From: Eshraghiella crossota
Lineage (GTDB): Bacteria; Bacillota; Clostridia; Christensenellales; CAG-917
Direction: 5' to 3'
NCBI GenBank assembly: GCA_963590075.1
Contig: CAVANK010000008.1
Coordinates: 390-64,389 of the forward strand
Length of the DNA: 64,000 nucleotides
How positions within the stretch are numbered: the first letter of the stretch is position 1; each line of letters starts with the position of its first letter. The position numbers and the translations under genes are program-made. Under the pieces are notes generated by a model. The model searched no databases. It saw nothing but the letters and a program-made list of their open reading frames with translations, and had not been told where the DNA came from. Shown here piece by piece: positions 34,209 through 61,612 of the stretch.

Positions 34209-34256
34209 TATCGAGAAATATCAGTAATAAATTAACAAAAGAAGAGTATCGCACCG

Positions 34257-45089: not shown

Positions 45090-45444
45090 AATATGCCTCT
45101 AATATTTTTTACGCACCGTATTGTAGTCTTGTGTGTGCGCAATGTCAAATATTATGCGAAAATTGCAATAAACGAGTGTGCGTATTTGTGCGATAATTGC
45201 ATACATTTTGCATATTGTGCGGAAATTTCTATACCAATAAAAACTATATTCAAATATCCCGACGGGACTGTTCTCCGATAAAATAGGGGGCGCGTAGAAC
45301 GTTTGGCTGTTGCATTGTTTTTTATGCTCAACGGATAATATTCAATCGCAATTTTTTCAGCCCTCATATTGACACAGCGTAGAGCGTTTGGTTGGAACAA
45401 TTTATGGAAGTACAATAAATATATTAAAAATATATTAATTTATC

Positions 45445-45473
45445 TTGATAAGAACCGCTAAATATGGTATAGT
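45445..45473 (+). promoter_or_regulatory. Candidate sigma-A promoter (extended -10) of the lipid operon
   Basis: TTGATA, 17 nt, TGgTATAGT. Leaves a leader of about 285 nt before GTG 45766. Confidence 0.5.
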
Positions 45474-45765
45474 TTAAAAGTCATACTATATGTATGCAAA
45501 TTCGAGTAGGGGGACTACTCGCTATTTGCGTTGCAAAAATTCATCGATTCCATTTCGGCAGAAGAATGCTCGCAAACAATCGATCGAATAGAATCGCTTT
45601 ACATATACTGCGACAACTATGCGAGAAACGTTCCGTAGCGACATCTCGTATGGGATGCGACTTTTTGTTTGTCGCGACGCTTTTTTATGGTCGCTTTATC
45701 AAAAACGCGTCCCCGATTTCAACGCATAGAAGTGCCGAAGCATTATATCGTATTGGAGAGTAATT

Positions 45766-47676
45766 GTGAAGATAAAGGATATAGGCGGGTTTAAAAGAGC
45801 AGGAGATTATATCGGTTACAAACTCGACGCTCTTGAGTCATCGGATAAATCGATGGCGTCTTTATATGAATTGATGTTCTCCGAAAGAGAGAACGTTATG
45901 TTTGAGCAATCCGACGGTTTCAGAATTAAAAAAACGTCTTACGGAGAAGTTTTTGACTGTGTCGAGGCGATTTGCGCCGATTTACAAAGAAAAATAAACG
46001 CTGAAAATCAATCCGTAGTGGGAATATATATGGACAATTCACCGCAATGGATTGTTGCTTTTTGGGCAGTGTTGCATTGCGGATTTAAACCGCTTCTTTT
46101 GAATTTGAGAATGTCGGACGCAACTATAGAACGAGTTATTGCGCAAAACAACGTTTGCGCGGTGGTTTCGGACGGCAAGATATTTTCTGTAAATACAATC
46201 GTTTTCGACAGTGTGAAAAAGAGCGAAACGTCACTTGAAAAATGCGAGTTCGGTCGGGAATTTTTCGTGATGTCGTCGGGTACGTCGTCGGTAAAACTCT
46301 GCGCTTATTCCGCCGACGAACTTGTGCAAATAATAAGGGATAGTTCCGATCTGTTGAAGCGCAATTCCATTCCGAAACGTCATTATAACGGCAACATCAA
46401 GTTGCTGACATTTTTGCCGTTTTATCATATTTTCGGCTTTATTGCGGTATATCTTTGGTTTTCGTTTTTCGCGCGCACTTTCGTGTGTCTGCGCGATTAC
46501 GGTCCTCAAACAATAGTAAACACGATAAAAAAACACAAAGTCACGCATATATTCGCAGTGCCTATGCTTTGGGATAAGGTTTACGAGCAAGCGATTGCGA
46601 CGATAAAGTCGCGCGGACTCGAAGCTAAGTTCGATAAGGCACTCAAAATCTCAAATAAGCTCGGCAATTCATTGCCGGGAAAGGCGTTTGCTTCGCTTGC
46701 ATTCAAAGAAGTCAGAGAAAAAACGTTTGGAGAAAGCGTGCGTTTTTTGGTAACGGGCGGAAGCGTTATTCGCCCTCAGGTTATCGGATTTTTTAACGGT
46801 ATAGGCTATCACCTTGCCAACGGTTACGGAATGTCCGAAGTCGGAATAACTTCCGTCGAACTTTCAAACAGCAGAAAGAAACTTAACTCCTGTTCTATCG
46901 GGAAACCGTTGCCGTCCATCGAATACAGAATTGACGAAAACGGCGTTTTGGAGGTAAGAGGAAAGTCGTTGGCAAAGTACATCTGCGAAAACGGCGAAAA
47001 GAGATACACGAACGGCGACTGGTTCAATACTCGCGATTTGTGCCAAAAGAAAGGCGATTGCTATTATATTAACGGTCGCGAGGACGACTTGATCGTGTCC
47101 GTGAGCGGCGAAAACATCAATCCCGTTGCGGTGGAAGAAGTCTTGTTGCCGAAAAATGCCAACGTCGTGTGCCTTATAGCGGGCAAAGACGACGAGTTGC
47201 CGGTGCTTTTGACATCGGTGCCAAAAGGGCTGAGCAGAGAAGAATCGGAAGCGGTAGTCAAAGAAATACGAGAACGCATAGAGGAAAACAATCTGTCTGC
47301 TCAAATCGGAAAAGTCTACCTGACTTGCGACGAACTGATTGTGGGAAACGAATTCAAACTCAACAGAAAAAGACTGAAAAAGGATTATTCGGAAGGTAAG
47401 ATTTCGCAAATAGAGTTCAAAAACAATGACGTTTGCGAAAATCACGATGAGTTGACGGAGAAAATAAGAGGTTATTTCGCCACCGCGCTCGGAAAAGCGG
47501 ACGAACAAGTCGGATATGAAACGAATTTCTTTTTGGACGAAGGCGGAACAAGTCTTGATTATTTTGCGCTTATTGCAAAATTGCAACAGGATTTCCGTAT
47601 GGATTTCCCGATGTCCGTAGACGAGAATCTTACAACCGTTGCCGATATGGTCAAATACATAAGGGAAAGAATATGA
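45766..47676 (+). CDS. Adenylate-forming (ANL) enzyme fused to a C-terminal carrier-protein domain
   Basis: 636 aa with a GTG start after a GGAGAG RBS. ANL motifs GYGMSEVG, GDWFNTRD and GREDDLIVSVSGENINP. The C-terminus has a carrier-protein Ser motif (FFLDEGGTSLDYFALI). The phosphate-binding loop is atypical (SSGTSSVKL). Confidence 0.75.
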   Translation: MKIKDIGGFKRAGDYIGYKLDALESSDKSMASLYELMFSERENVMFEQSDGFRIKKTSYGEVFDCVEAICADLQRKINAENQSVVGIYMDNSPQWIVAFWAVLHCGFKPLLLNLRMSDATIERVIAQNNVCAVVSDGKIFSVNTIVFDSVKKSETSLEKCEFGREFFVMSSGTSSVKLCAYSADELVQIIRDSSDLLKRNSIPKRHYNGNIKLLTFLPFYHIFGFIAVYLWFSFFARTFVCLRDYGPQTIVNTIKKHKVTHIFAVPMLWDKVYEQAIATIKSRGLEAKFDKALKISNKLGNSLPGKAFASLAFKEVREKTFGESVRFLVTGGSVIRPQVIGFFNGIGYHLANGYGMSEVGITSVELSNSRKKLNSCSIGKPLPSIEYRIDENGVLEVRGKSLAKYICENGEKRYTNGDWFNTRDLCQKKGDCYYINGREDDLIVSVSGENINPVAVEEVLLPKNANVVCLIAGKDDELPVLLTSVPKGLSREESEAVVKEIRERIEENNLSAQIGKVYLTCDELIVGNEFKLNRKRLKKDYSEGKISQIEFKNNDVCENHDELTEKIRGYFATALGKADEQVGYETNFFLDEGGTSLDYFALIAKLQQDFRMDFPMSVDENLTTVADMVKYIRERI

Positions 47677-48317
47677 TTTGGTTTTTTCAGGCATTTGCAA
47701 AAATCACGGGTTGGCCGCTTCAAAAACTCATATTCAGGACGAAAGTTTTGTATGAGGACAAAAGCGTGCAGTCAAGGCGCATAAAAGGCTCGGCGATTCT
47801 CGTGTCCAATCATACCTCGATTTACGACTATATCGTGATAATGTTCACGTTTATATCGCGCATTTTGAGATATCAGATGGCGGAGTTGCTTTTTGACAAA
47901 AAAGGACTCGGCGGGCTTTTGAAAAGGTTGGGCGGAATAAAGGTGAATCGCAACGCGCACGACTACGGATTTATAGAACGATCCAAAGACGTGTTGGACA
48001 AAGGCGGTGTGGTCGGGATTTTTCCGGAAGGCAGACTGCCGAAAGACGGGGAAGTGCCTCCGATTGAATTTAAACCGGGTGCGGCGTATCTTGCGCTTTA
48101 CTCCGACGTCAAAATAATCCCGACATACCTTAGCGGCGGTTATTTCGGGAAAAAGCGTGCAAAAATCGTTATCGGCAAGCCCATAGACGTAAACGAACTT
48201 TACGACTCGAGCAAAAGCGAAAAAGAAAATTTGGAAGACATATCAAATCGATTGAGGGAGAAAGTAATCGAATTGGGAACGTTGATCGATGAAAAACAAA
48301 AGAGAAAACAAGCCTGA
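47673..48317 (+). CDS. PlsC-family (lysophospholipid/glycerol-3-phosphate type) acyltransferase
   Basis: HX4D motif NHTSIYD and a downstream FPEGR motif. ATGA overlap with the preceding gene. Confidence 0.8.
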   Translation: MIWFFQAFAKITGWPLQKLIFRTKVLYEDKSVQSRRIKGSAILVSNHTSIYDYIVIMFTFISRILRYQMAELLFDKKGLGGLLKRLGGIKVNRNAHDYGFIERSKDVLDKGGVVGIFPEGRLPKDGEVPPIEFKPGAAYLALYSDVKIIPTYLSGGYFGKKRAKIVIGKPIDVNELYDSSKSEKENLEDISNRLREKVIELGTLIDEKQKRKQA

Positions 48318-48990
48318 AAAGAAGAAAGAAAGGCACTTTTTATACGACATCGTATGGGGAACCGGATATGCTCTCGGATGTATCGGTTTCAGACAAAAAG
48401 TGCTGTATATCAGCCCGAAAGCAAAAGAAAAGATAAAAGGCGGTGCGTTGCTCGTGGCAAATCACGTGAGTTTTTTCGATCCCGTGTATATGCTTATGAC
48501 GGTGCCGTACAGACGTCAACACTTTGTCGCGACGAAAGAGTTTTTCTCTACAAAGTTCAAAAGATTTTTGTTTGAGAAAGTCTTTTTGTGCATAAGCATC
48601 GACAGGGACAACGTCGGAACGGCGACTTTCCGCACGATAGTGAACGAGCTGAAACAAGGCGAAATCGTTTCTCTGTTTCCGGAAGGACATATAAACACAA
48701 AAACCGACGGAAGTCTTGACGAGTTCAAGTCGGGCGTGGTGTTGATGGCGTTAAAAAGCAATTGTCCCATAATTCCGATGTACGTGCATGGGCGCAAGAA
48801 CATATTCCACCGCTTGGTAACCGTCGTCGGAGAACCGTACGAAGTGTCTTTGCAAAAAGCGAACGGATCGGTTATCGAATATATGCAGGACGCCGCAAAG
48901 GAAATCAGAGAAAAGGAAATCGAGCTTGAACGATACTACAACGAGTATTGCGAAAATAAACATAAAAAATCACACAGAGGAGATAAGTGA
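48289..48990 (+). CDS. Second PlsC-family acyltransferase
   Basis: HX4D motif NHVSFFD and the FPEGH motif. Overlaps the preceding gene by 29 nt. Only one possible start codon. Confidence 0.75.
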   Translation: MKNKRENKPEKKKERHFLYDIVWGTGYALGCIGFRQKVLYISPKAKEKIKGGALLVANHVSFFDPVYMLMTVPYRRQHFVATKEFFSTKFKRFLFEKVFLCISIDRDNVGTATFRTIVNELKQGEIVSLFPEGHINTKTDGSLDEFKSGVVLMALKSNCPIIPMYVHGRKNIFHRLVTVVGEPYEVSLQKANGSVIEYMQDAAKEIREKEIELERYYNEYCENKHKKSHRGDK

Positions 48991-50507
48991 TGTACACAAA
49001 CACAAGAGAGTATTTTGCTCAATTTACCGACTCGGAAACTTTTAGCAGATTGGTCGAATATCCCGACGTCGTTACGATGTGGAACGAGCGTTCCGGAGAG
49101 TTTGCCGACAGTGTTGCCGTTATAGACGACGCAAAAAGTTATACCTTCGCACAAATTGACGACGATATCGCTTTGTTCAGAACGGTGCTGAAGAATAACG
49201 GATTGAAAAAGGGCGACAGAGTGGGCGTTTTTGCAAAAAACTCCTATGACTTTGTAAAACTTTATCTTGCCGCGGTGACATCCGGTCTTACGGCGGCGGT
49301 ATTGCCCGCTCAATTGAACGATATGGCAATATTCGGATGTTCGATGCAGTTTGGTCTTAAGGCGATTTTGACGCAAGACTCTCTGCTTGCCACGACAGAG
49401 TTTGCGCGCGAAAAGAATCCCGCTTTGAAAGTGATTTCCGCAAGTCAGACGGCAGACGAAAAAACTCCGTCAACCGCCGTGGACGGGACGGATATATGCG
49501 TGATTATGTTTACCGGCGGTACGACGGGAAAGAGCAAGGGCGTAAAACTTTCTCATTGCGCGGTCATGCAAGGAACGATAAACGGTTGCTACGGAATAAA
49601 AGACGTATTCGGTCAAAAATATTTGCTCGTTTTGCCTCTTTCTCACGTTTTCGGCCTTATCAGAAACCTTATGTCTTCGTTGTATTCCGGCAGTTGTCTT
49701 TGCATTTGCCGCAACAACAAGGATATGTTTAGGGATATTGCGATTTACAAGCCGACCGTATTGGTTGCAGTGCCCGCTCTTGCGGAAATGGCACTCGGAC
49801 TTTCTCGTCAATTCGGCAAGAATATGCTCGGTCCCGATCTCAAGACAATTATTTGCGGAGCGGCAACCGTTGCGCCGTATCTCGTTGCGGAATACAGAAA
49901 GATAGGCATTACTTTGTACCCCGGATACGGACTTACGGAATCCGCAAATCTTGTGACTGGCAACGTTGACAACTTCAACAAACCGTCGTCTATCGGCGTG
50001 CCTTATCCCAATCAGGAACTCAGAATCGTTGACGGCGAACTTTGGCTCAAGGGCAAAAATATGATGGACGGTTATACGGATGAAGAAGCCAATAAAACCG
50101 CGTACGAGGACGGTTGGTTCAAAACGGGCGACCTCGTCAAGACCGATGCGGACGGCTTCTATTATGTCGTAGGAAGAATAAAAGAAGTCATCGTGTTGGC
50201 AAACGGCGAAAACGTTTCTCCTGCGGAAGTCGAGTGTAGTTTCAACGAGTTGGACTTTGTACAGGATTCGCAATTGTTCGAGGACGTGGACGAAAACGGC
50301 AATCACTATCTCTCGCTCGAAATCGTGCCGAGAGCCGCGGTTGTAAAAAATATAGATGCCGAGGACAAGAACGCGTATATGATGAGCGCGCTTGAAAAGG
50401 TCAATATGTCTTTGCCGGGACATTGCAGAGCAAACAAGATCGTGATCAGAGACAAAGACTTTGACAGAACGCCGAGTATGAAAATAGCGAGATACAAAAA
50501 ATGTTGA
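48987..50507 (+). CDS. AMP-dependent synthetase/ligase (fatty acyl-AMP/ACP/CoA ligase type)
   Basis: Canonical ANL motifs FTGGTTGKSKG, GYGLTES, WFKTGD and GRIKEVIVLANGENVSP. ATGA overlap with the preceding gene. Confidence 0.85.
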   Translation: MMYTNTREYFAQFTDSETFSRLVEYPDVVTMWNERSGEFADSVAVIDDAKSYTFAQIDDDIALFRTVLKNNGLKKGDRVGVFAKNSYDFVKLYLAAVTSGLTAAVLPAQLNDMAIFGCSMQFGLKAILTQDSLLATTEFAREKNPALKVISASQTADEKTPSTAVDGTDICVIMFTGGTTGKSKGVKLSHCAVMQGTINGCYGIKDVFGQKYLLVLPLSHVFGLIRNLMSSLYSGSCLCICRNNKDMFRDIAIYKPTVLVAVPALAEMALGLSRQFGKNMLGPDLKTIICGAATVAPYLVAEYRKIGITLYPGYGLTESANLVTGNVDNFNKPSSIGVPYPNQELRIVDGELWLKGKNMMDGYTDEEANKTAYEDGWFKTGDLVKTDADGFYYVVGRIKEVIVLANGENVSPAEVECSFNELDFVQDSQLFEDVDENGNHYLSLEIVPRAAVVKNIDAEDKNAYMMSALEKVNMSLPGHCRANKIVIRDKDFDRTPSMKIARYKKC

Positions 50508-50749
50508 CTAAAGAAGAAATTTTTGAAAAATTGAGAAGTATTCTTATCGGAATGGACGATAGGAACAGAGAACTTATCGCAAATGCGACCGAGGATACCA
50601 AGTTGATAACGGAACTCGGCCTTTCATCCGTAAGTATGCTTTATCTGGTTATCGCAATCGAAGAAACTTTCGATATCGAGTTCGATACCGAATTTCCGTT
50701 TGCTACCGTGGGCGAAGTCGTGGATTATATCCAGAGTAAAATAAAATGA
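50501..50749 (+). CDS. Acyl carrier protein
   Basis: 82 aa, acidic. Ser attachment region ELGLSSVSMLYLVIAIEETF. Overlaps the stop of the ligase gene. Confidence 0.75.
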   Translation: MLTKEEIFEKLRSILIGMDDRNRELIANATEDTKLITELGLSSVSMLYLVIAIEETFDIEFDTEFPFATVGEVVDYIQSKIK

Positions 50750-51738
50750 AATGGACGCTTGACGATTGCGAGTTTGGCGATGTCGTGAGAGTGAAGTGCG
50801 ACAGCGTATACCATTACGGGATATTCGTTTCGCAAGACGAAGTGATTCAGTTCGGATATCCGCCGACATACTATGTGAACGAGCATAAAAACGAACCTAT
50901 AACCGTCAACAGAGTCGGCGTTTACGATTTTATCGGCGACGGAATGATAGAAAAAGGCGTTTTCGAAAGAGGCGAGAAGCATTTTCCGAGAGAAGAAATC
51001 GTCGCGCGTGCGTCGAAGAGAATAGGCGAGGGCGGATACAACATACTTCACAACAATTGCGAGCATTTCGTGTATGAGTGCGCTTTGGGAGTGAAACGCA
51101 GTCTTCAGGAAGAAGAGTTGTGCAAAAAGTGGAAGAACAGACCTGTTTTCGACGTGTACGTAGCCTTTGACGTCGACGCGTTGACAAAAGGCGAGATTGT
51201 CGACGCAAAGAGAAGAAAGGATATTTGCGAAACCCAAAACCAAAGAGTGAAAGAGGAAAAAATCGCAGTGTGGAATCTGCTTGCAATCGCCGCTCGCAAC
51301 TCGTTGGCTATCGATATCGACAACGTAAAATTCGACAAACAAAAAAGCGGGAAATGGACGAGCGATGAGTTTGCTTTTTCGCTGTCGCATACGGATGGTT
51401 GCGTTGCCGTCGCGGTGTCGAGGGACGATTGCGGAATCGACGTCGAAAAGTTGTCGAATTTTTTGCAAAAGTGCAAAGATAAGTCGTTTGAAACCGCTTT
51501 TGCCGAAAAAATCGGCGTGAGCGCAACAGGGGAAGAGTTGCTTTGTCAATGGACAAGAAAAGAAAGCGTTTACAAGGCAACGGGCATCGGCCGTTTTATA
51601 CCAAAGGACACGGATGGCAAAAAGTATGGCGTAAAAACCGTAAAAATTGCCGATTATATCGTGAGTGCGGTTTCCGTCAAGAGCGAAAATCCAAACATCT
51701 ATGCGGTTGAAAACGGCAAGTGCAGAATTATGTTTTAA
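50746..51738 (+). CDS. LRAT/NlpC-P60-like acyltransferase domain fused to an Sfp-type 4'-phosphopantetheinyl transferase
   Basis: N-terminus: YHYGIFV His box and NNCEHFVYEC Cys box (LRAT family). C-terminus: FSLSHTDG, GIDVEKL and WTRKESVYKATG (PPTase motifs). ATGA overlap with the ACP gene. Confidence 0.7.
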   Translation: MKWTLDDCEFGDVVRVKCDSVYHYGIFVSQDEVIQFGYPPTYYVNEHKNEPITVNRVGVYDFIGDGMIEKGVFERGEKHFPREEIVARASKRIGEGGYNILHNNCEHFVYECALGVKRSLQEEELCKKWKNRPVFDVYVAFDVDALTKGEIVDAKRRKDICETQNQRVKEEKIAVWNLLAIAARNSLAIDIDNVKFDKQKSGKWTSDEFAFSLSHTDGCVAVAVSRDDCGIDVEKLSNFLQKCKDKSFETAFAEKIGVSATGEELLCQWTRKESVYKATGIGRFIPKDTDGKKYGVKTVKIADYIVSAVSVKSENPNIYAVENGKCRIMF

Positions 51739-51749
51739 GGAGGGGACAG

Positions 51750-52712
51750 ATGCATTTGGCATTGCAGATAGCGTTATACGTTTTGGTTGCGCTCGTAGGT
51801 AGTTTTTTGCTGTCTTACGTTGCGGTAAACGTTGCGCTGTTCGTAAAGTTTTTCCGGAAAGTGCCTTCCGAAAAATTGAGGAAGAATGCGTTGAAAGACG
51901 AATACTACGACGGATTGAGAGAGAAAATGCTTGCCGCAAGCGAAAGAATGGATAATATGCCCAACACGCGTATAACTTGCACGTCCGAGGACGGATTGAA
52001 ACTTTCGGCAAGATATTACAAAAACGAATCGGACAAGTTGATCGTGTTCTTCCACGGCGTACACGCAGTTGCTTGGAACGGACTTGCTTTTGTCGCCGAA
52101 ACGTTTTGGCAACAGAAGTACAACGTGATGATTGTCGATCAACGCGCTCACGGTCAAAGCGAAGGTATGTATTCCACGTACGGATATCGCGAAAGCGACG
52201 ACGTGCTCTGCTGGCTCGATAGGCTTGCAGATATGAAATTGAGCGAGATAGTCCTGTACGGAATATCTATGGGCGCGACTGCGCTCGGACTTGCGTCGGA
52301 CAGAATAAAAGACGACAGAGTGAAAGCGCTGATTATGGATTGCGGGTTTACGTCGCTCTATGATTTGGAAAAGCACATTCTCAACTACAATCACATTCCC
52401 GACTTCCTTATGAGCGGAATGATTGTCGCGGGGAACGCGATTTTCAAAATCGACAACAAGGAATGCACGCAGGAGCATATAAAAAATTCCGATATTCCGA
52501 TGTTGTTCTTGCACGGCACGGCGGACAGAGTCGTCCCGATAGAGTGCAGCAAAAACAATCTCGACGCATGTAAGTCTATGAAAGAAATGATAACCGTAGA
52601 CGGCGCGGGACACACAACGGCAACCGTTGTGGGAGGAGGAGAAGTCAGAGAGAAAATCTGTGATTTTATAAACAAAACATACAAAACAAAAGAGGAGAAT
52701 TGCAATGGATAA
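51750..52712 (+). CDS. Membrane-anchored alpha/beta hydrolase
   Basis: ATG 51750 after an AGGAGG RBS. N-terminal TM helix, GISMG nucleophile elbow, late D and H (GTADRVV...GAGHT). Confidence 0.75.
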   Translation: MHLALQIALYVLVALVGSFLLSYVAVNVALFVKFFRKVPSEKLRKNALKDEYYDGLREKMLAASERMDNMPNTRITCTSEDGLKLSARYYKNESDKLIVFFHGVHAVAWNGLAFVAETFWQQKYNVMIVDQRAHGQSEGMYSTYGYRESDDVLCWLDRLADMKLSEIVLYGISMGATALGLASDRIKDDRVKALIMDCGFTSLYDLEKHILNYNHIPDFLMSGMIVAGNAIFKIDNKECTQEHIKNSDIPMLFLHGTADRVVPIECSKNNLDACKSMKEMITVDGAGHTTATVVGGGEVREKICDFINKTYKTKEENCNG

Positions 52713-53640
52713 AAAATTTGTAATCATACCGGACGTTACTTGCGATTTGAGCGAAGAATTGCGCGACAAGTATGATATCCGGTTTATCAACGGATATTAC
52801 TCGACGCCGGACGGCAAAGAACATCCGTCTTTTCTGAAGTGGGAGGGTATGACTTCAGAACAATTTTATAAAGAACTGAAAGCCGATCCGAACGGATTTA
52901 AGACGGCACCTCCGAACATTCAGGAATGGCACGACGTATTTGAGCAATACATAAAAGAAGGCTACGACGTTTTGGGCATGACCATTTCTTCGGGTATTTC
53001 GGGAACTTTCGCGTTTATGAGCGAGGCGGCAAAGCAAATAAGGGAAGAGTATCCCGACGCAAAAGTGCGCTGTGTCGACTCGATGAGATTCAGTTCCGGT
53101 TGCGGATTGATGGCAATTTACGCGTCTATCCTCAGAGAACAAGGCAAAACCATCGACGAGGTTGCGGATTGGTTGGAAGAAAACAAAAACAGATTCCATC
53201 AATCGGGATGGCTTGACGATTTGTCGTTTGTCGCAAAGAAAGGCAGACTTACGCAGGCAAAAGCATTCTTCGGCACGCTCGCGGGCGTCAAACCTATCGG
53301 TGAATTTGACTATAACGGACTTACTACCGTCATAGGAAAGGCAAAAGGCGAAAAACAAGCGTATAAAGTGCTTGTCAGATACATCGAAGAAACGATAGAA
53401 AATCCGCACGACCAGATTATTCTTTTGGCAACGTCCGATAGAAAAAAACAAGCGGAAGTCTATAAAAAGATGATAGAGGACAATATTTGTCCCAAGGAAG
53501 TTATCATCAACGGTGTTTTCCCGTCTTGCGGAATCAACGTCGGTCCCGGTCTTATGGCCGCATACTATGTCGGCAAACCGATTTCCAAAGGCGTGGTAGA
53601 AGAAAAAGAAATTATGTCAAGATTGCTTCAAGAAAAATAA
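52705..53640 (+). CDS. DegV family fatty-acid-binding protein (FakB-like)
   Basis: ISSGISGTF and LSFVAKKGRL DegV signatures. 8-nt overlap with the preceding gene. Confidence 0.85.
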   Translation: MDKKFVIIPDVTCDLSEELRDKYDIRFINGYYSTPDGKEHPSFLKWEGMTSEQFYKELKADPNGFKTAPPNIQEWHDVFEQYIKEGYDVLGMTISSGISGTFAFMSEAAKQIREEYPDAKVRCVDSMRFSSGCGLMAIYASILREQGKTIDEVADWLEENKNRFHQSGWLDDLSFVAKKGRLTQAKAFFGTLAGVKPIGEFDYNGLTTVIGKAKGEKQAYKVLVRYIEETIENPHDQIILLATSDRKKQAEVYKKMIEDNICPKEVIINGVFPSCGINVGPGLMAAYYVGKPISKGVVEEKEIMSRLLQEK

Positions 53641-53668
53641 AGCGATTCGAAACAAAAGAGGATAATTT

Positions 53669-55135
53669 ATGAAAGTGCTTAAAAACAAGGGATTGATGGT
53701 TCTTTACGGATGCTCCGCAATGGGCGTCAATCTGCTTAACTTAATGATGGGTTCTTATCTGTGCAGCGCATTGCTTGTCGGCGGTTTCGGCGCAGAGGCT
53801 ATACCGTATCAGACATTCGAAGGCAAGGACCTCGTCGTGGCGGCGGCGTGGGCGGTATTCGTCGTAATTGCAAAGATTATCGACGGCGTTATCGATATTC
53901 CTATGGCTACGCTTACGGACAATTTGAAATCGAAATGGGGAAGAAGACGCCCCACGATTCTCATAGGATTGATCGTACTTATCGCATCCTTCCTGCTCTT
54001 TGCGTTGTATACGCCGCAAAACGGCGAAACGTGGCTCAACACCGTGTATTACGGAATAGTGTTGTGCGTTTTCTATAGTTCATATACATTGACTATGGTG
54101 AGTTATTACGCCACGTTTACGGAAATCGTAGACAATGAACAGGACAGAAACTTTATTTCAAACGTAAAATCTGTTTGCGATATAGTTTATTTCATCATAG
54201 GATACGTCGTTGTCGGCTTTATACTCAAAGGCTTGAATATCAGAATGGTTTCTTTGATAATATTGCCGTTGGTGTTGCTTATGCTCATCCCGATGTTCCT
54301 CATAAAAGAGCCGTCGACGCTGAATACTCAAAGATCTGCAGAGAAGCAAGTAAACATCTTCAAATCTCTCGCATACACATTCCGAAACAAGGATTTCATC
54401 TGCTGGATGGTCGTTTATTTCTTCCTGACCTTTGGCGTGCAACTGTTCCTTGGCGGTATAAACGAGTACTTCTCATATAGAAATATGAGTATGATGTACG
54501 TTATGGCGGCGTCGTTTGCGCCCGTTCCTCTGACATTGATTCTTTACAATTGGATAATCAAAAAGAGAGGATTTAGGTTTGCCATACAGTACGTTTTGCT
54601 TATCTTTGCGGTGGCAATGCTTATGCTTTTCGGAATATCGTACATCAAAGACGATACGACAAGAACGGTATTGTCTGTGGTCGGAGGTCTTGCAAGTTCC
54701 TTTGCGGTGGGAGCAATTTTCTCGGTGGCGTATTCTATTCCGTCACAACTTGCAGCCGATGACGAGCAAAGAACGGGTATTTCTCATTCGGCTATGTATT
54801 TTGCCGTTCAGGGACTGTTTTCAGGCGTTGCCAGCGGTCTTGCGACGGGAGTGGTGTTGACTGCTTTGAAAAAGACGGACGGCGCGATAACTTACATGAC
54901 GATTATTTCCGCAATTGCGTGCGTAATTGCGTTTACCTTTACCTATATACTACCGCAATCGATAGTTAAACTCGGAAGGGTGGAAAAAGTGCCCGCAGTA
55001 CAACCTTCGGAAGCAACGAGCGATGCCGACACCGCCGAAAATTTATCGGAAGAGGGTGTGTTGAGCGTTGCAAGCGCAGACGTGCAAATCTCCGAAGACG
55101 AAAATACGACAAACAATATACAAGACTATGAGTGA
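53669..55135 (+). CDS. GPH/MFS-family transporter
   Basis: About 12 TM segments. GPH-type loop motif DGVIDIPMATLTDNLKSKWGRRRP. Acidic C-terminal tail. Confidence 0.75.
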   Translation: MKVLKNKGLMVLYGCSAMGVNLLNLMMGSYLCSALLVGGFGAEAIPYQTFEGKDLVVAAAWAVFVVIAKIIDGVIDIPMATLTDNLKSKWGRRRPTILIGLIVLIASFLLFALYTPQNGETWLNTVYYGIVLCVFYSSYTLTMVSYYATFTEIVDNEQDRNFISNVKSVCDIVYFIIGYVVVGFILKGLNIRMVSLIILPLVLLMLIPMFLIKEPSTLNTQRSAEKQVNIFKSLAYTFRNKDFICWMVVYFFLTFGVQLFLGGINEYFSYRNMSMMYVMAASFAPVPLTLILYNWIIKKRGFRFAIQYVLLIFAVAMLMLFGISYIKDDTTRTVLSVVGGLASSFAVGAIFSVAYSIPSQLAADDEQRTGISHSAMYFAVQGLFSGVASGLATGVVLTALKKTDGAITYMTIISAIACVIAFTFTYILPQSIVKLGRVEKVPAVQPSEATSDADTAENLSEEGVLSVASADVQISEDENTTNNIQDYE

Positions 55136-56810
55136 AAGAATGGACGGTACAAGATTTGAAAGAATGGTCAGAAGTGGCCTCGCAAATTTGTGTATCCACG
55201 AAAAAGAAATAAACGATATGAACGTGTTTCCCGTTCCGGACGGCGACACGGGGCATAATATGCGCCTCACGCTCGAAAACGGAATAAACAACGCGCAATC
55301 CGAAAAACATCTCGGCAAATATCTGAAAAGTTTGAGCCACGGGATGTTGCTCGGCGCGCGCGGAAATTCCGGCGTTATACTTTCGCAATTGTTCAGCGGT
55401 ATGGCGGACGAGCTCGAAAGCGACAGTTATATCAATGCGGGCGAATTGAGGGACGCGTTGATAAGAGCGTATAAGAAGGCTTACTCTGTCGTCGCTCGTC
55501 CCGTCGAAGGGACTATTCTCACCGTTGCGAGAGAGGGCGTCGAACATATTATTCCTCAAATAAGAAGAGGTACAACGGTTGAACTGACTTTCTCGATGTA
55601 TCTTGCCGAAATGAAAAAATCGGTGCGCAATACTCCCGAAATGCTCGCGGTGTTAAAGGAGTCCGGAGTGCTCGATAGCGGTGCGGTGGGATATATAACG
55701 ATTTTTGACGGAATGGTCAGAGCAATGAACGGGGAAGATATACAAGCGTCGGAGGATGTGCAAATGAATACGTCGGGGAATTTAAGTGCGACCGATACTT
55801 CCGGCTTCGATGAAAACAGCCAATTCCGATTTGGCTACTGTACGGAGTTTTTATTGCAACTGCTCAATGCAAAGACGTGCAACAATCCGTTTTCTTTGTC
55901 GAAGTTCAAAGACGAACTCGGCAAACTCGGCAACTCGCTGGTGGCAATTCAGTCGGGAACTATCGTAAAAATACACGTACATACGTTTACGCCTGCAGAC
56001 GTCATCGCTCTTGCGCAAAAATACGGAGAATTTGTGTCTTTCAAACTTGAGAACATGCAGATTCAACACAACGAATTTTCCGCAGATGCAAGCGTGCAAA
56101 AGAGCGCTGTTGCCGCAGACGTCGACGCCGTAACGGATGTCAAAGAACTGGCGGTTGTTGCCGTAGCGGACGGTGACGGTATCAGCGATATATTGAAAGG
56201 TTGCGGTTGCGATATGGTGCTTGCGGGCGGACAAACCATGAATACCGCCGTGCAGGAATTTGTTTCGGCATACAAGACGCTCGATGCAAAGAGAATCGTA
56301 GTGTTGCCAAACAATTCAAATATAGTTCAATCTGCCGTTCAGGCTGCCGAGGTGTGCGGAATGAGCGATAAGATAACCGTTATCCCGACAAGTTCCGTTA
56401 TCGAAGGGTATTACGCGTTGGCTATGGGTTCTGTGGATATCGAAGACGTCGAAGAGCGCATATCGTTGATGAAAGACGGTGCGCAAAGTATAACTACCGT
56501 AAGCGTGGCAAAAGCGGTAAAGAATTATTCTGCAAGCGATTTTTCCTGCGGGAAAGGCGATTATATCGGCTTTGTAGGCAAGAAACTTATATCGGCAAAC
56601 GCAGATATAAACACTGCTCTCGTCGACGCTTTGAAACAGGTTGACGATTTGGAAGATAAGGGTTCTTTCGTTGTTCTAATCGGCGCAAACGCACCCGAAA
56701 ATGCCGAAAACGATATTCGCGAATTGCTTGAAAACGAGTTTGAAGATATAGGCACCGACGTTCTTTACGGCGGTCAACAGGTCTATGACGTAATCGTGGG
56801 GGTGGTTTGA
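55128..56810 (+). CDS. DAK2-domain protein of the YloV/FakA (fatty acid kinase) type
   Basis: Start at ATG 55128, overlapping the transporter stop. N-terminal Dak2 motif NVFPVPDGDTGHNM and a roughly 560-aa three-domain length. Two genes downstream of the DegV gene, with the transporter gene between them. Confidence 0.8.
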   Translation: MSERMDGTRFERMVRSGLANLCIHEKEINDMNVFPVPDGDTGHNMRLTLENGINNAQSEKHLGKYLKSLSHGMLLGARGNSGVILSQLFSGMADELESDSYINAGELRDALIRAYKKAYSVVARPVEGTILTVAREGVEHIIPQIRRGTTVELTFSMYLAEMKKSVRNTPEMLAVLKESGVLDSGAVGYITIFDGMVRAMNGEDIQASEDVQMNTSGNLSATDTSGFDENSQFRFGYCTEFLLQLLNAKTCNNPFSLSKFKDELGKLGNSLVAIQSGTIVKIHVHTFTPADVIALAQKYGEFVSFKLENMQIQHNEFSADASVQKSAVAADVDAVTDVKELAVVAVADGDGISDILKGCGCDMVLAGGQTMNTAVQEFVSAYKTLDAKRIVVLPNNSNIVQSAVQAAEVCGMSDKITVIPTSSVIEGYYALAMGSVDIEDVEERISLMKDGAQSITTVSVAKAVKNYSASDFSCGKGDYIGFVGKKLISANADINTALVDALKQVDDLEDKGSFVVLIGANAPENAENDIRELLENEFEDIGTDVLYGGQQVYDVIVGVV

Positions 56811-56814
56811 TCCT

Positions 56815-57774
56815 ATGATAGCACTTTACGTTATTGTCGGAATAATCGGAGCCACACTGTTGCTATACATTTTGCCGATGCTGTTTTTGGCGCATCTGCT
56901 TTTTTCCATATTGCTTGTGCGTACAAAACCGAGCAAGTGGTCGCGCAATTGCAGTTGGGACGACGAAGAGCAGAAAAGAATGTTCGCCATAGGCGAGGAA
57001 TGGGGCGCGACTCACGAGCAATACCACAGACAAGTTTCAATCGTAAGCGACAAATATAAACTTGTCGGCGAATATTTCGATTTCGGTTACGACAAGGCGG
57101 TGATTATCGTCCCCGGCAGAATGGAAACCTGTGTTTATTCCTATTATTTTGCAAAGCCCTATGAAGAAACGGGATATAATGTGTTGGCTATCGACAACAG
57201 ATCTCACGGTTTGTCGCAGGGAAGATATAATACGGTCGGGATGAAAGAATATGCGGACATAATCAACTGGGCAAGTTTTTTGCATGATTCATGCGGAATA
57301 AAGAAGATTATGTTCCATGGCATTTGCATAGGATCGGCAACCGTTCTCAATGCGTTTACTTTCGTTCAGCCGCCCGAATACTATCAGGGATTGGTCGCGG
57401 ACGGAATGTATTTGCACTTCGGAAACATGCTTGAGAAGCGAATTAAAGAAAGACACCACAATCCGCACCCAATGACGGAAATCGTTATGTCGATGATAAA
57501 ATGCGTGTCGGGAAAAAATCCCGCAAAGAACGGACCTATTCACAATATCGACAAAATGAAAAAGCCGATGCTGTTTTTATATAGCAAAAAAGACGTGTAT
57601 TCGGATCCCGCCGAAGTGCAGAGTTTATACGATAAGTGCGGTGGCGAGAAGCAGATAGTTTGGTTTGACGAGGGTATACACTCTCATATCAGAATAAACA
57701 ATACGGAAAAGTACGACAATACCATAAAAGCGTTTATAAGCGATTATATGAAAGATATAAATGATAAAGGATAA
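56815..57774 (+). CDS. Membrane-anchored alpha/beta hydrolase paralog with Cys in the nucleophile elbow
   Basis: Same layout as the 51750 gene, but the elbow reads HGICIGS (57319..57333) where the paralog has YGISMGA. Confidence 0.7.
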   Translation: MIALYVIVGIIGATLLLYILPMLFLAHLLFSILLVRTKPSKWSRNCSWDDEEQKRMFAIGEEWGATHEQYHRQVSIVSDKYKLVGEYFDFGYDKAVIIVPGRMETCVYSYYFAKPYEETGYNVLAIDNRSHGLSQGRYNTVGMKEYADIINWASFLHDSCGIKKIMFHGICIGSATVLNAFTFVQPPEYYQGLVADGMYLHFGNMLEKRIKERHHNPHPMTEIVMSMIKCVSGKNPAKNGPIHNIDKMKKPMLFLYSKKDVYSDPAEVQSLYDKCGGEKQIVWFDEGIHSHIRINNTEKYDNTIKAFISDYMKDINDKG

Positions 57775-57785
57775 AGGAGAAAATT

Positions 57786-58904
57786 ATGGGATTGGATAAG
57801 TTGTTTTCGGGCAAGAACAAGGTTACAAACATGATTGACAACGTAAGCCGAAAACACAAAATCGCCAAAGCCGTGGTCACCCTTACCGGGATGAGTATGG
57901 CGAGCGTTGTCGGTGCTATGGCTTTGTACGATTCGTTCTTTCAGCGGTACAATCGCCCCGATTATTCGTTGAAACCGGGCATCTATTGCTATGAGAGAGC
58001 AAAAGATGTTGTTGAAAGAGAAGAGTTTTTCTTTCCCGCAAACGACGTAAATTTGAAAGGATATTATTATCCTGCGCAAAATTCGTCGGGACTCGTCGTC
58101 GTTTCTCACGGCTTGCATGCGGGCGCGGACGATTATCTGCCAATAATAATTTATATGGTACAAAACGGTTTTTCCGTGTTTGCGTATGACGGGAGAGGTA
58201 CGTATGATTCCGAGGGTTCGTCAACGGTCGGACTGTGTCAGGCACTCGTTGATCTCGATTGCGCTTTGGGCTATATCCAAAAAACCGACAAATACAAAGA
58301 TATGCCGTTGTTTCTGATAGGGCACTCTTGTGGCGGATATGCGGCGACGTCCGTTTTGAGCCTTAAGAAGAATATCAAGGCATGTGCCGCAATCGCACCT
58401 CCAAACAATTGCTATACGCTCATAAGAGAGAAAGGCTATCAATACGGAGGTATGCTTGCTTCGGAGGGTTTGCCGAGAATATTCCTCGATGCGTATCAGT
58501 TCATCCTGTTTGGCGATTATACGGAATGTAACGGCGTAAAAGGCATCAATTCCGTCGATATTCCCGTGCTTGTCGCGCACGGCGTGGACGATAAGATTAT
58601 TTCGTTTGGCGGACAATCCGTCATTTCGCACAAAAACGAAATCACCAATCCCAACGTGAGATATTATATCGGCACCAACGATAGCGGAGGACATGACAGT
58701 ATTTGGCATTCCTCTTCCGCCGCAGAGTATAAAAAGGATGTCGAAAAGAGTATAGCGCAACTAAAAGAGCAAAAAGGCGACGACCTCAGCGATGAAGAAC
58801 TCGCCGAGTTTTATAAGACAATAGACCATCAAAAATACAGCGAAATAAACTTTGCCTTGTTTGACGAGATTATCTCGATGTATAAAGATGCGTTGAATAA
58901 ATAA
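57786..58904 (+). CDS. Alpha/beta hydrolase (secreted or membrane-anchored)
   Basis: AAAGGAG RBS, N-terminal hydrophobic segment, GHSCGG elbow, HGVDDKII region and a late His. Confidence 0.75.
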   Translation: MGLDKLFSGKNKVTNMIDNVSRKHKIAKAVVTLTGMSMASVVGAMALYDSFFQRYNRPDYSLKPGIYCYERAKDVVEREEFFFPANDVNLKGYYYPAQNSSGLVVVSHGLHAGADDYLPIIIYMVQNGFSVFAYDGRGTYDSEGSSTVGLCQALVDLDCALGYIQKTDKYKDMPLFLIGHSCGGYAATSVLSLKKNIKACAAIAPPNNCYTLIREKGYQYGGMLASEGLPRIFLDAYQFILFGDYTECNGVKGINSVDIPVLVAHGVDDKIISFGGQSVISHKNEITNPNVRYYIGTNDSGGHDSIWHSSSAAEYKKDVEKSIAQLKEQKGDDLSDEELAEFYKTIDHQKYSEINFALFDEIISMYKDALNK

Positions 58905-58920
58905 TTAACGGAGGGGTATT

Positions 58921-59418
58921 ATGCCGTATTGCAGAAAGTGTGGAAAAGAAATCGAACAAGACACGGGTTTGTGCGAAGATTGCAGAAATAGGGAACTTAT
59001 TTTTGAAGAATACGAACAAGAACCCGTCGCAATTGACGAAGCGAATAAGTTTGAAGAAGCGAATAAGTTTGAAACGGAGCAACCTGCGCAAAGTAGCGGA
59101 AGGATGTTCGGCTTCGGCAAAGCGCTCGCATCTGCTATCGTCGGAGTTGTATCCGTCGCATTTGCTTATATAGCGACGGCTCTTGCCTTGCTCGGCGAAG
59201 AAGGCGTGGCGGGTTGCGCGGTTTGCCTGACGTTTTCAATCGTAGGCGCAATAGTGAGTTTGACTTTTGGTATTATATCTATAAAGACGTTTATCCAAAA
59301 GAAAAACGAAGGCGAAATTAAGCCGATCGCGACGCTCGTATGCGGAATCGTGGGGTGCGCAATGACGGCAACGGCAGGAGTGTGGTGGCTTTATTGCCTC
59401 GCAAGGATGGTGTATTGA
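58921..59418 (+). CDS. Zinc-ribbon membrane protein
   Basis: N-terminal CRKC-12 aa-CEDC ribbon, an acidic linker containing an 18-nt tandem duplication, then 3-4 TM segments. GGAGGGG RBS. Last gene of the co-oriented block. Confidence 0.6.
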   Translation: MPYCRKCGKEIEQDTGLCEDCRNRELIFEEYEQEPVAIDEANKFEEANKFETEQPAQSSGRMFGFGKALASAIVGVVSVAFAYIATALALLGEEGVAGCAVCLTFSIVGAIVSLTFGIISIKTFIQKKNEGEIKPIATLVCGIVGCAMTATAGVWWLYCLARMVY

Positions 59419-59505
59419 TAGTTTCTATCCAAAGCGTTTTAGGGAAAACGCTGAAAATGAAATTGTCTGTATGAATAAAGCGAAATTTGTGAATATATGC
59501 GGTGT

Positions 59506-59799
59506 TTATTCTCCAAACATCGATACGTAAATATCGTAGGCGTCGTTGAGAGATTTGACGGGAACGTAGAGCATCAGCGAGTCGTTGGCTCTCGTTGCAA
59601 GACTAAAACCGCAAGGCACGGCAAAAACGTCGATGTTTTGAGATCTCAACGCCTCGATAAACATCGTCGCAAAATGGTTGTCGGACATTTTATAAAAGAA
59701 AGAAACGTCGTCGTCTTTGGCTGTGCGCAAATCGGTGTTCCCGCAACGCGCGCACACTTTTTCCGCATTGGCGATTTTGCATTTTTCGCAATAAAACAT
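59506..59799 (-). CDS. Hypothetical small zinc-ribbon protein
   Basis: MFYCEKCKIANAEKVCARCG gives CxxC-9 aa-CxxC. ATG 59799 (GGGAG RBS) is preferred over the TTG at 59814. Function unknown. Confidence 0.5.
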   Translation of the reverse strand: MFYCEKCKIANAEKVCARCGNTDLRTAKDDDVSFFYKMSDNHFATMFIEALRSQNIDVFAVPCGFSLATRANDSLMLYVPVKSLNDAYDIYVSMFGE

Positions 59800-59889
59800 A
59801 TTTTGTTCTCCCAAACTGCTTTTTGATTATCATATCACAAAAGTTGCGATATATCAATGGGGCAATGAGAATAACAAAAAATAGAAGTT

Positions 59890-59916
59890 AGCGTGTTGAA
59901 AAACACGCTTTATTTT
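59890..59916 (+). terminator. Orphan terminator-like hairpin
   Basis: AGCGTGTT / AACACGCT stem with a GAAA loop, then TTTATTTT. Lies in a divergent intergenic region with no upstream + strand gene to terminate. Confidence 0.35.
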
Positions 59917-59936
59917 CCTCGATTAGTTTGTATCGA

Positions 59937-59965
59937 TTGATTTTTTGCGGCAAGAAGACTATAAT
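59937..59965 (+). promoter_or_regulatory. Candidate sigma-A promoter of the ArsB/NhaD-type transporter gene
   Basis: TTGATT, 17 nt, TATAAT, followed by a hairpin-rich leader of about 120 nt. Confidence 0.5.
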
Positions 59966-60088
59966 CTGCAAGCGTACGGACAATGTTATTGCAGATAACG
60001 ACTTTTGTAAAAATTTGCGAATAAATCGTACAAAAGCATTAAAAGCAAAGCACATAAATGCAAGCGTAAGGATACAAGGATACGAAAG

Positions 60089-61423: not shown

Positions 61424-61444
61424 AAAAGCGCAAGCATATCGGGG

Positions 61445-61535
61445 AGTGATATTGCGACTTTGTCGCAGTGATATTCTCGCTATGCGAGAGTGATATTTTT
61501 GGCTTGTGCCAAAAGTGATATTCGCACTTCGTGCG
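61445..61535 (+). repeat. Array of 4 AGTGATATT motifs alternating with 4 different short hairpins (3' UTR of the permease gene)
   Basis: AGTGATATT at 61445, 61467, 61489 and 61514. Intervening hairpins are GCGA-CTTTG-TCGC, CTCGC-TAT-GCGAG, TTTGGC-TTGT-GCCAAA and CGCAC-TTC-GTGCG. Confidence 0.8.
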
Positions 61536-61558
61536 AGTTGTGGAGTATTCTATAAATC

Positions 61559-61591
61559 AAAAAAAACACTGTCCGTTCTGGCAGTGTTTTG
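61559..61591. terminator. Bidirectional rho-independent terminator
   Basis: A-run, AAAACACTG / CAGTGTTTT stem with a 10-nt loop, then a T-run. Sits between the convergent permease and sdaA genes. Confidence 0.8.
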
Positions 61592-61612
61592 TATTATCGT
61601 TTGATTGATTAT

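Follow-up and report, generated by a model that had tools for sequence, protein, structure and literature searches.

A thirteen-gene operon of gut and rumen Clostridia with two ligase and acyltransferase sets, private carriers, a MelB/MFSD2A-type transporter and a fatty acid kinase pair: a possible route for the assimilation of exogenous lipids

A 64,000-nucleotide (nt) stretch of the Eshraghiella crossota genome (assembly GCA_963590075.1, contig CAVANK010000008.1, positions 390 to 64,389; hereafter the window) contains, at 45766-59418 of its own numbering, a run of thirteen genes predicted to handle fatty acids and lipids, which we refer to in order as g1 to g13. They encode an ANL-type ligase fused to a carrier domain (g1), two PlsC-type acyltransferases (g2 and g3), a second ligase (g4), a stand-alone acyl carrier protein (ACP; g5), a fusion of an LRAT-type domain with a phosphopantetheinyl transferase (PPTase; g6), three proteins of the alpha/beta-hydrolase fold (g7, g11 and g12), a DegV/FakB-type protein (g8), a major facilitator superfamily (MFS) transporter (g9), a FakA-type kinase (g10) and a zinc-ribbon membrane protein (g13). 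The protein families are all known, and it is their assembly that is new: an Aas that is split and duplicated and has private carriers, a transporter of MelB/MFSD2A type, a fatty acid kinase (Fak) pair, a soluble LRAT domain and an alpha/beta hydrolase with a Cys nucleophile. No description of the 13-gene cluster was found in the full-text literature, in agreement with an initial annotation, made from the sequence alone, which had recognized no described cluster of this composition; the domains it had assigned to all thirteen proteins were reproduced by Pfam. The evidence presented here is comparative throughout, and most of the related loci come from metagenome-assembled genomes (MAGs). Domains were called with Pfam and NCBIfam on the window proteins, and the conservation of motifs was judged on aligned orthologues from 81 related loci.

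In the list of open reading frames (ORFs), all thirteen genes lie on the plus strand and, as had been claimed, are tightly spaced or overlapping, with overlaps of 4-29 nt and gaps of at most 28 nt. Four-nucleotide overlaps join g1 to g2 (ATGA), g3 to g4 (GTGA) and g5 to g6 (ATGA), and longer ones are found at g2/g3 (29 nt), g4/g5 (7 nt), g7/g8 (8 nt) and g9/g10 (8 nt), while gaps separate g8 from g9 (28 nt), g10 from g11 (4 nt), g11 from g12 (11 nt) and g12 from g13 (16 nt). The g6/g7 junction is a 19-nt overlap if g7 is read from the GTG at 51720 and an 11-nt gap if it begins at the ATG at 51750, to which the 320-residue g7 gene calls in two close relatives correspond. For g10, the most likely start is the ATG at 55128, which lies within a longer ORF that opens with a TTG at 55068. 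A ribosome-binding site, GGAGAG, precedes the GTG start of g1 (45766) by 5 nt.

Relatives of the fusion protein g6, which make up 402 homologue clusters in the protein collection, occur in 436 of 185,579 species-representative genomes. Taxonomy was read from 80 of the loci found in these 436 genomes, and the class-level names among the 80 are all Clostridia, from the rumen or from human or animal gut; named hosts include Oscillospiraceae, Christensenellaceae, Saccharofermentans and Mageeibacillus, and two odd titles, ‘uncultured Bacteroides sp.’ and ‘Acidiphilium sp. CAG:727’, seem to belong to gut MAGs under a wrong label. Stop-to-stop ORFs in 85 loci were assigned to the 13 window proteins by best match, and presence was counted over 40 non-duplicate loci with complete flanks. 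Each of g1-g5 is present in 36-38 of the 40 (g1 in 36), g9 in 29, g12 in 28, g7, g8, g10 and g11 in 24-25, and g13 in 14. Gene order stays constant at 35-50% g6 identity, the genes flanking the cluster differ between loci, and the median spacing of consecutive orthologues is -34 to +20 nt, g11-g12 excepted. Searches started from the other end of the operon led to the same place: the cluster holds 3 of 3 homologues of the MFS transporter (61-68% identity) and 4 of 4 of FakA, one of which is identical while the others have 47-48% identity. The gene-neighbourhood check thus found the genes co-conserved in relatives; because order and spacing are shared by dozens of species whose flanking genes differ, the adjacency is not fortuitous, and an assembly artefact is unlikely to lie behind an order that recurs in dozens of independent assemblies.

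The relatives differ from one another in the blocks they carry. Twenty-four loci have the window's order (type A), three of them without the MFS gene. Eight loci (type B) read g1-MFS-g2-g3-g4-g5-g6, followed by g12 and one to four g13-like genes, and carry neither DegV nor FakA nor g7 nor g11; their MAG labels are Clostridiales, Eubacteriales, Oscillospiraceae, Clostridia, Candidatus Scatosoma and Candidatus Coproplasma. A core-only type consists of g1-g6, with a Wzy_C protein next to it in Saccharofermentans, and three MAGs (two Christensenellaceae, one Clostridiales) hold a six-gene half system, g3-g4-g5-g6-g12-g13. The searches started from the MFS and FakA proteins gave further variants without g4, g6 or g4-g6. 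Within this variation g7 always accompanies DegV (25 and 25 of the 40 loci), and g11 is found only where FakA occurs (each in 24 of 40), directly after it and within 30 nt in 21 of 21 loci. The cluster is thus made of four co-travelling modules: g1 (with g9) and g2; g3, g4, g5 and g6; g7-g8-g9-g10-g11; and g12 with g13. The initial annotation had treated the thirteen genes as one system, which holds for the tight operon of the window; among the relatives, four modules occur in differing combinations and parts are lost. The genes that recur in or beside the cluster include no fab, plsX, plsY, cdsA, glycosyltransferase, reductase, condensation or polyketide synthase/non-ribosomal peptide synthetase (PKS/NRPS) gene. 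Its recurring extra neighbours are zinc-ribbon membrane proteins, a polysaccharide-deacetylase-like gene and a MacB-type ABC transporter, none of which names an acceptor. The deacetylase-like gene (Polysacc_deac_1 plus DUF3473), which is absent from the window, lies between the g11 and g12 orthologues in about seven relatives, for example at L001:16969-17823, L086:14362-15270 and L009:16896-17795.

Both ligases are scored by NCBIfam as fatty-acid-type enzymes rather than amino-acid adenylation domains. The first, g1 (45766-47676, +), joins a carboxylic- or fatty-acid ANL ligase (PF00501, 1.2e-35) to a C-terminal carrier domain at about 47458-47661 (PF00550, 6.5e-10); the adenylation motifs and the Ser of the carrier GGxS motif are conserved in 59 orthologues, and the P-loop, MSSGTSxVK, is atypical yet conserved. 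The second, g4 (48987-50507, +; PF00501, 6.8e-62), is a canonical fatty-acid-type AMP ligase, all core motifs of which are conserved in orthologues, and its best NCBIfam model is a long-chain-fatty-acid--CoA ligase, which scores 197 bits where the model of the amino-acid adenylation domain reaches 110 bits. PDB sequence searches with g1 and g4 returned generic ligases only. The stand-alone carrier g5 (50501-50749, +; PF00550, 3e-05) is an ACP that is not of the housekeeping AcpP type: it scores under every ACP equivalog cut-off of NCBIfam (best 46.6 bits versus 66), and the Ser of its GLxSV motif is conserved in 66 orthologues. Two known arrangements of a ligase with a carrier were considered for these genes and rejected. 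A DltA/DltC pair for D-alanylation does not agree with the fatty-acid-ligase profile of g4, and the cluster holds no MBOAT/DltB or DltD; the ether-lipid ElbD-type combination of ligase, ACP, reductase and acyltransferase would call for a reductase domain, and none is present.

The two acyltransferases belong to the PlsC/LPLAT type. The putative partner of g1 is g2 (47673-48317, +; PF01553, 6.7e-20), with NHxxxxD and FPExR motifs conserved in 60 orthologues; that of g4 and g5 is g3 (48289-48990, +; PF01553, 1.2e-20), with conserved NHxxxxDP and FPEG motifs, which is kept in the six-gene half system. For both, NCBIfam ranks first the PlsC domain from acyl-[ACP]--phospholipid O-acyltransferase, an MFS-PlsC-ligase fusion. 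No transmembrane (TM) segment is predicted in g2 or g3, which fits monotopic enzymes acting on membrane lipid.

The fusion protein g6 (50746-51738, +) consists of an LRAT/PLAAT-type Cys-His domain (about 50767-51096; PF04970, 9.1e-16) and an Sfp-type PPTase (about 51145-51735). The Pfam ACPS model (PF01648) gives the latter 24.5 bits, slightly below its cut-off of 25, and is recorded for most homologues. Across 24 homologues that are 35-48% identical, H23, the NNCEHF motif (C105) and the PPTase motifs GxDxE (G230/D232/E234) and WxxKExxxK (W269/K272/E273/K277) are invariant or nearly so, and the third triad position of the LRAT domain is Q, A or E. An AF2 model built from the homologue alignment has a pLDDT of 91. 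Foldseek matched its C-terminal two thirds to Sfp, human AASDHPPT and mycobacterial PptT (E about 1e-10 to 1e-6), and its N-terminal third to human PLAAT3, HRASLS2, AdPLA and PLAAT4 (E about 1e-6, TM 0.74-0.80). In two relatives an LRAT-only gene stands at the g6 position (L090:4382-4798, 138 residues; L092:4309-4749, 146 residues), and the encoded proteins keep H23 and NNCEHF intact while the PPTase half is absent; the LRAT domain thus counts as a functional part of the pathway by itself. No description of an LRAT-PPTase fusion was found in the full-text literature.

The N-terminal domain of g6 shares its fold, His23 and the Cys of NCEHF with the PLAAT, H-REV107 and LRAT Cys-His phospholipases A/acyltransferases of the NlpC/P60 superfamily. 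The animal PLAAT/LRAT enzymes carry a C-terminal hydrophobic anchor that places them on phospholipid bilayers, whereas the g6 domain lacks this anchor, is fused to a PPTase and adjoins carrier proteins; no hydrophobic or TM segment was detected in g6 or in the stand-alone 138- and 146-residue versions. Since the domain is soluble and adjoins carriers, its possible substrate is an acyl-S-carrier rather than a bilayer phospholipid, and it may act on such thioesters.

No gene of the cluster is more conserved than that of the transporter g9 (53669-55135, +), for which the median identity is 59%, compared to 37% for the LRAT-PPTase, and homologues were found at 59-77% identity. Pfam assigns it to MFS_2, the GPH/MFSD2A-type cation-coupled symporters (PF13347, 2.9e-30; 105.6 bits against a cut-off of 27), ahead of MFS_1 (2.9e-15), and the TIGR00792 gph model scores 55 bits, below its cut-off of 231. 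A sequence search of the PDB with g9 gave no match. Its AF2 model (pLDDT 76.6) has as its top three PDB neighbours the MFSD2A lysophosphatidylcholine symporter (E 8.5e-10 to 2.7e-9), followed by MelB, at 13-16% identity to the structures of both. Alignment with hhalign against E. coli MelB reached a probability of 87% and pairs the invariant D72/D76 of g9 with D55/D59 of MelB. In MelB, D55/D59 are the Na+-binding residues and Asp124/Trp128 bind the sugar (PMC12851581); equivalents of the latter two are not recognizable in the aligned stretch of g9. The candidacy of g9 as an LplT homologue was rejected, as hhalign against E. coli LplT gave a probability of 1% (E 0.053). We conclude that g9 belongs with the cation-coupled symporters of the MelB/MFSD2A family; the symporter type and the intact pair of cation-site Asp residues argue for import, and a lysolipid is a plausible substrate in view of the structural model.

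The Fak pair is represented by g8 and g10. The DegV/FakB-type fatty-acid-binding protein g8 (52705-53640, +; PF02645, 9.1e-55; TIGR00762, 193.9 bits versus 99.7) has a median identity to its orthologues of 58%. The kinase catalytic subunit g10 (55128-56810, +) has the full set of FakA domains (PF02734, 4.7e-36; PF21645, 1.4e-23; PF13684, 2.3e-50) and exceeds the cut-off of the YloV family model TIGR03599 (487.7 bits versus 396.1). The equivalog models NF038248 (VfrB; 397 versus 975 bits) and NF038249 (FakB1; 120 versus 350) are not reached, but these were apparently built on staphylococcal proteins, and failing them says little for a Clostridium.

Each of the three proteins with the alpha/beta-hydrolase fold (Hydrolase_4) has a single N-terminal hydrophobic anchor. 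The membrane-anchored g7 (from GTG 51720 or ATG 51750 to 52712, +; PF12146, 1e-16) is a Ser hydrolase with GxSMG, Asp and His conserved in its orthologues. The Ser hydrolase g12 (57786-58904, +; PF12146, 1.7e-18) has a conserved GHSxGG motif and, with four Lys/Arg residues before and two after the TM segment of its N-terminal signal-anchor, is probably extracytoplasmic. Its sequence matches in the PDB are the esterase 5g59 (2e-8) and monoglyceride lipases (about 1.5e-4), and PDB sequence searches with the three hydrolases found only generic esterases. The median identity of g7 and of g12 to their orthologues is about 30%. The third protein, g11 (56815-57774, +; PF12146, 8.2e-13), has the nucleophile elbow HGICIG, in which Cys replaces Ser, and at least 90% of 34 orthologues keep this motif, the Asp and the His. 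Taken with its constant place after FakA, the Cys nucleophile suggests a candidate thioester-forming transacylase rather than a lipase. Of the three lipases proposed in the initial annotation, g7 and g12 stand as Ser enzymes of the expected family, and g11, with its conserved Cys and its exclusive occurrence with FakA, fits the description poorly.

The last gene, g13 (58921-59418, +), encodes a zinc ribbon with conserved CxxC...CxxC, an acidic, Pro-rich linker and three hydrophobic, presumably TM, segments (DUF4190-like; weak Pfam matches only). One to four tandem g13-like genes lie directly 3' of the cluster in 14 loci, divergent copies are found in 24 loci (examples are L064:12172-13815, L071 and L052), and such genes also follow the six-gene half system.

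Among characterized systems, the closest in gene logic is LplT-Aas (E. coli b2835/b2836; in fused MFS-PlsC-ligase form, PRK08633), which likewise combines an MFS transporter, a PlsC-type acyltransferase and a ligase of the acyl-ACP-synthetase type. The acyltransferase domain of E. coli Aas (residues 31-175) is matched by g3 with 26% identity over 151 residues (E 6e-11), and its acyl-ACP synthetase domain (residues 261-630) by g4 with 27% identity over 383 residues (E 1e-24); the matches of g2 (E 4e-5 over 50 residues) and g1 (E 2e-4, marginal) are weak. By these similarities, the g3-g6 module amounts to an Aas in split form that has an ACP and a PPTase to itself, and the MFS gene of type B loci, set between the ligase-carrier and the PlsC gene, follows the same logic. 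The cluster departs from LplT-Aas in four respects: the transporter comes from another MFS family (the cation-coupled MFS_2), the ligase and acyltransferase are separate proteins, each present twice, the carriers (one fused, one free) and the PPTase are private where LplT-Aas uses the housekeeping ACP, and the cluster additionally encodes an LRAT domain, a Fak pair and three hydrolases. The analogy with LplT-Aas drawn initially is thus borne out for the acyltransferase and the ligase and fails for the transporter, which is of MelB/MFSD2A type. As for g9 itself, it resembles MelB of the GPH family and MFSD2A, the eukaryotic Na+-dependent lysophosphatidylcholine symporter, in family, nearest structures and the helix-II Asp pair, and differs from them in its low identity and in lacking recognizable MelB sugar-binding residues.

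FakA and DegV form the route by which Firmicutes are known to use exogenous fatty acids (PMC10146087). In their domains, g10 and g8 agree with the pair that works with PlsX, PlsY and PlsC in that pathway, and both score above their family cut-offs; unlike that pair, they are set among hydrolases and a transporter, beside carrier-dependent ligases, with plsX and plsY not linked, and are always followed by the alpha/beta-fold enzyme with the Cys nucleophile. A further comparison is offered by Gram-positive bacteria that use host lysolipids. LplT-Aas has been identified only in Gram-negatives, leaving the uptake and acylation of lysophosphatidylcholine (lysoPC) by streptococci unexplained (PMC11416262), and mitis-group streptococci scavenge glycerophosphocholine (GPC) and lysoPC by an activity for which the transporter and acyltransferase genes have not been identified (PMC6805115). 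The streptococcal pathway, which involves uptake of a deacylated or half-acylated lipid and one or two acylations, is chemistry that the cluster could perform, although it belongs to the Lactobacillales. Finally, gut Clostridia contain an NRPS-like cluster for fatty acid amides (Oaa) that pairs a fatty-acid ligase and carriers with a free-standing condensation domain (PMC13310621). The present cluster shares with it the fatty-acid ligase and the carrier proteins; it was rejected as a model since no condensation domain occurs in the 13 proteins or their recurrent neighbours, and PlsC-type O-acyltransferases are found instead.

On this evidence, we hold with about as much belief as doubt that the operon is a self-contained system for the assimilation of exogenous fatty acids and lysolipids, which are re-acylated into membrane lipid. 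Within that proposal, the operon is best read, by analogy, as a Gram-positive functional counterpart of LplT-Aas plus FakAB with private carriers. The hydrolases g12, outside the cell, and g7, at the membrane, would act on lipids of the diet, the host or the cell itself and free fatty acids together with lyso- or deacylated lipids, and g9 would carry to the cytoplasmic face an acceptor that is amphipathic or bears a head group. The fatty acids would be adenylated by g1 and g4 and loaded as thioesters onto the C-terminal carrier of g1 and onto g5, both primed by the PPTase half of g6; in a parallel activation, g8 and g10 would make acyl-phosphate. Carrier-bound chains would then be passed to the lipid acceptor by g2 (with g1) and by g3 (with g4 and g5), at two positions or for two acyl classes, and the two sets of ligase, carrier and acyltransferase could thereby channel chains by position or type while leaving the ACP pool for type II fatty acid synthesis (FASII) untouched. 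The LRAT domain of g6 and g11 would both work through acyl-thioester intermediates, the former probably on acyl-S-carrier, in transfer or editing, and the latter probably coupling the Fak module to the rest. Candidate acceptors are a lysophospholipid, a glycerophosphodiester, glycerol-3-phosphate and a lyso-glycolipid; for the rumen, in which galactolipids prevail, this fourth candidate has its appeal.

Two ligases of fatty-acid type, the Fak pair, a symporter-type MFS protein, a lipase-like g12 and the lack of recurring biosynthetic genes make salvage the best-supported use of the cluster. A more specific version of it would make the cluster the Gram-positive counterpart of LplT-Aas in full, with an MFSD2A-like symporter for Na+ and lysolipid, two carrier-channelled acyltransferases of a Lands cycle, and two thioester-forming Cys enzymes, of which the LRAT domain would act on acyl-S-carriers and g11 would link the acyl-phosphate of FakAB to the carrier or lipid pool. 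To our knowledge, the two thioester-forming Cys enzymes would be without precedent in bacterial lipid metabolism, and we put this version forward tentatively, as one that could be right but probably is not in every part.

Several observations weigh against salvage. The topology given for the hydrolases is a guess based on counts of charged residues. One MFS fold looks much like any other, MFSD2A leads MelB and drug exporters by a modest margin in a model of medium confidence, and the alignment with MelB covers helices II-IV only. Private carriers with a private Sfp-type PPTase are more typical of dedicated biosynthesis; core-only and half systems occur without the transporter and the Fak pair, so the core must work without import; and in Saccharofermentans a Wzy_C protein follows the core. 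These last points speak at the same time for a second explanation, that of a biosynthetic cluster for a dedicated, doubly acylated lipid such as a special membrane or surface lipid, a lipid anchor or a signalling lipid. In such a route, two acids on two carriers would be attached by the two PlsC enzymes, release or tailoring of the product would fall to the LRAT domain or the hydrolases, and movement of the product or a precursor to the MFS protein. It would suit the clear difference between the two ligases, with the atypical but conserved P-loop of g1, the polysaccharide-deacetylase-like gene of seven loci, the recurrent zinc-ribbon membrane proteins and the confinement of the cluster to one bacterial class. 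However, nothing that could form a scaffold (a condensation, PKS, glycosyltransferase, reductase or amino-acid-activating domain) travels with the cluster, FakA/DegV and lipase-like hydrolases are salvage functions, the symporter type with its intact cation site argues for import, and the piecemeal loss of parts in relatives would be unusual for a fixed biosynthetic route. We consider a dedicated lipid unlikely, though a serious contender; the evidence only shifts the weight towards salvage or remodelling.

A third explanation, which we regard as improbable, is that lineages unable to make fatty acids, and working with external ones only, have in the cluster their housekeeping route to phosphatidic acid, and that the cluster supplies their sole ACP, PPTase, FakA/FakB and glycerol-phosphate and lysophosphatidate acyltransferases. 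The membership of g10 in the true YloV family is in keeping with such a role, as are the intact motifs of the ACP, the PPTase and both PlsC proteins and the fatty-acid-rich gut and rumen in which the hosts live, and since all sampled FakA relatives down to 47% identity lie in the cluster, this FakA could be the only copy. Against this, type B, core-only and half systems do without FakA and DegV, and the variants lacking g4, g6 or g4-g6 indicate that parts are dispensable; g5 falls below every ACP equivalog cut-off, plsX, plsY and cdsA are not linked, and the distribution over species genomes is patchy. A chance juxtaposition of unrelated lipid operons, which the modular make-up of the cluster and the absence of modules from some relatives might have suggested, is refuted by the neighbourhood analysis and has next to no likelihood left, given overlapping start and stop codons throughout, an order and spacing shared by dozens of species, and MFS and FakA clades that lie in the cluster context in every sampled case.

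The operon is bordered upstream by a divergent MatE gene (43680-45089, -) and downstream by a convergent gene (59506-59814, -), beyond which lies a CitMHS/ArsB-type transporter. The convergent gene ends 88 nt past g13 and encodes a 102-residue protein that begins with a CxxC...CxxC zinc ribbon and matches nothing in Pfam, and a hairpin resembling a bidirectional terminator is located at 59890-59909. Terminator-like hairpins across 44500-62000, the cluster included, are not more numerous than in shuffled sequence (28 versus 21.8 +/- 4.8). A mobile element or horizontally acquired island was rejected as the nature of the cluster, whose GC content of 0.44-0.46 equals that of its surroundings and whose borders hold no mobility genes.

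Between the MatE gene and g1, a consensus scan found a sole good promoter-like site on the plus strand, at 45445-45473: TTGATA and a TG-extended TATAGT, 17 nt apart, with 10 of 12 consensus matches plus the TG. The site, known by its consensus match only, is kept in the relative L095. It would open a 5' leader of about 290 nt (45474-45765, +) that is predicted to be structured, with hairpins followed by U-runs (RNA fold z = -2.9); its fold was matched by just 1 of 200 shuffles. The leader is nearly base-for-base identical in L095 (3444-3735) and recurs blockwise in the more distant L096 (about 310-602), with at least one apparent compensatory change across the window, L095 and L096, three sequences being too few to judge. 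Rfam gave no match, either over the whole window at the gathering threshold or for the leader at E <= 1, and an 89-residue ORF within the leader (45494-45763) has no Pfam match. The leader is possibly an attenuator or riboregulator of the lipid operon.

Elsewhere in the window, a glycosyltransferase at 10673-11761 (+), adjoining a DUF512 radical-SAM protein and EngA, resembles monogalactosyldiacylglycerol (MGDG) and diglucosyl-diacylglycerol synthases, so that the host probably makes glycolipids. At 16094-19213 (-), a fused Dak1-Dak2 dihydroxyacetone kinase adjoins an iron-type alcohol (glycerol-like) dehydrogenase; the pair looks like a route from glycerol to dihydroxyacetone phosphate, and the kinase is the second Dak2-domain protein of the window, unrelated to the FakA of the cluster. 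Three consecutive genes at 21233-25386 (+) are like HydC/HydB/HydA of an electron-bifurcating [FeFe] hydrogenase, and with SpoIVA, which is also encoded in the window, they mark the host as a spore-forming anaerobe of the Clostridium class. The region at about 26000-34300 has a GC content of 0.36-0.40, against about 0.46 elsewhere, and was possibly acquired horizontally; it holds an AAA_14/DUF4143 ATPase (26135-27493, -) and a 1439-residue surface protein with BspA-type leucine-rich and Listeria-Bacteroides repeats (27828-32147), and a second repeat protein (34257-35651) comes immediately after it.

For the uptake and re-acylation of lysophospholipids and glycerophosphodiesters in Gram-positive bacteria, the cluster supplies candidate genes, namely those for a transporter, for two acyltransferases and two activating enzymes, and for carriers with a PPTase, and these are present in hundreds of species of gut and rumen Clostridia. 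The habitats of these hosts offer fatty acids, breakdown products of bile phosphatidylcholine and plant galactolipids. Two of the encoded proteins are enzymological oddities in their own right, namely the LRAT/PLAAT-PPTase fusion and the Cys-nucleophile alpha/beta hydrolase tied to a fatty acid kinase. If salvage is indeed the function of the operon, it would bear on how abundant uncultured commensals build their membranes from host and dietary lipid, on resistance to drugs that target FASII, and on lipid metabolism in the rumen. Should the cluster moreover prove to be a full counterpart of LplT-Aas, it would give gut and rumen Clostridia a private route from host or dietary lysolipids to their own membrane.

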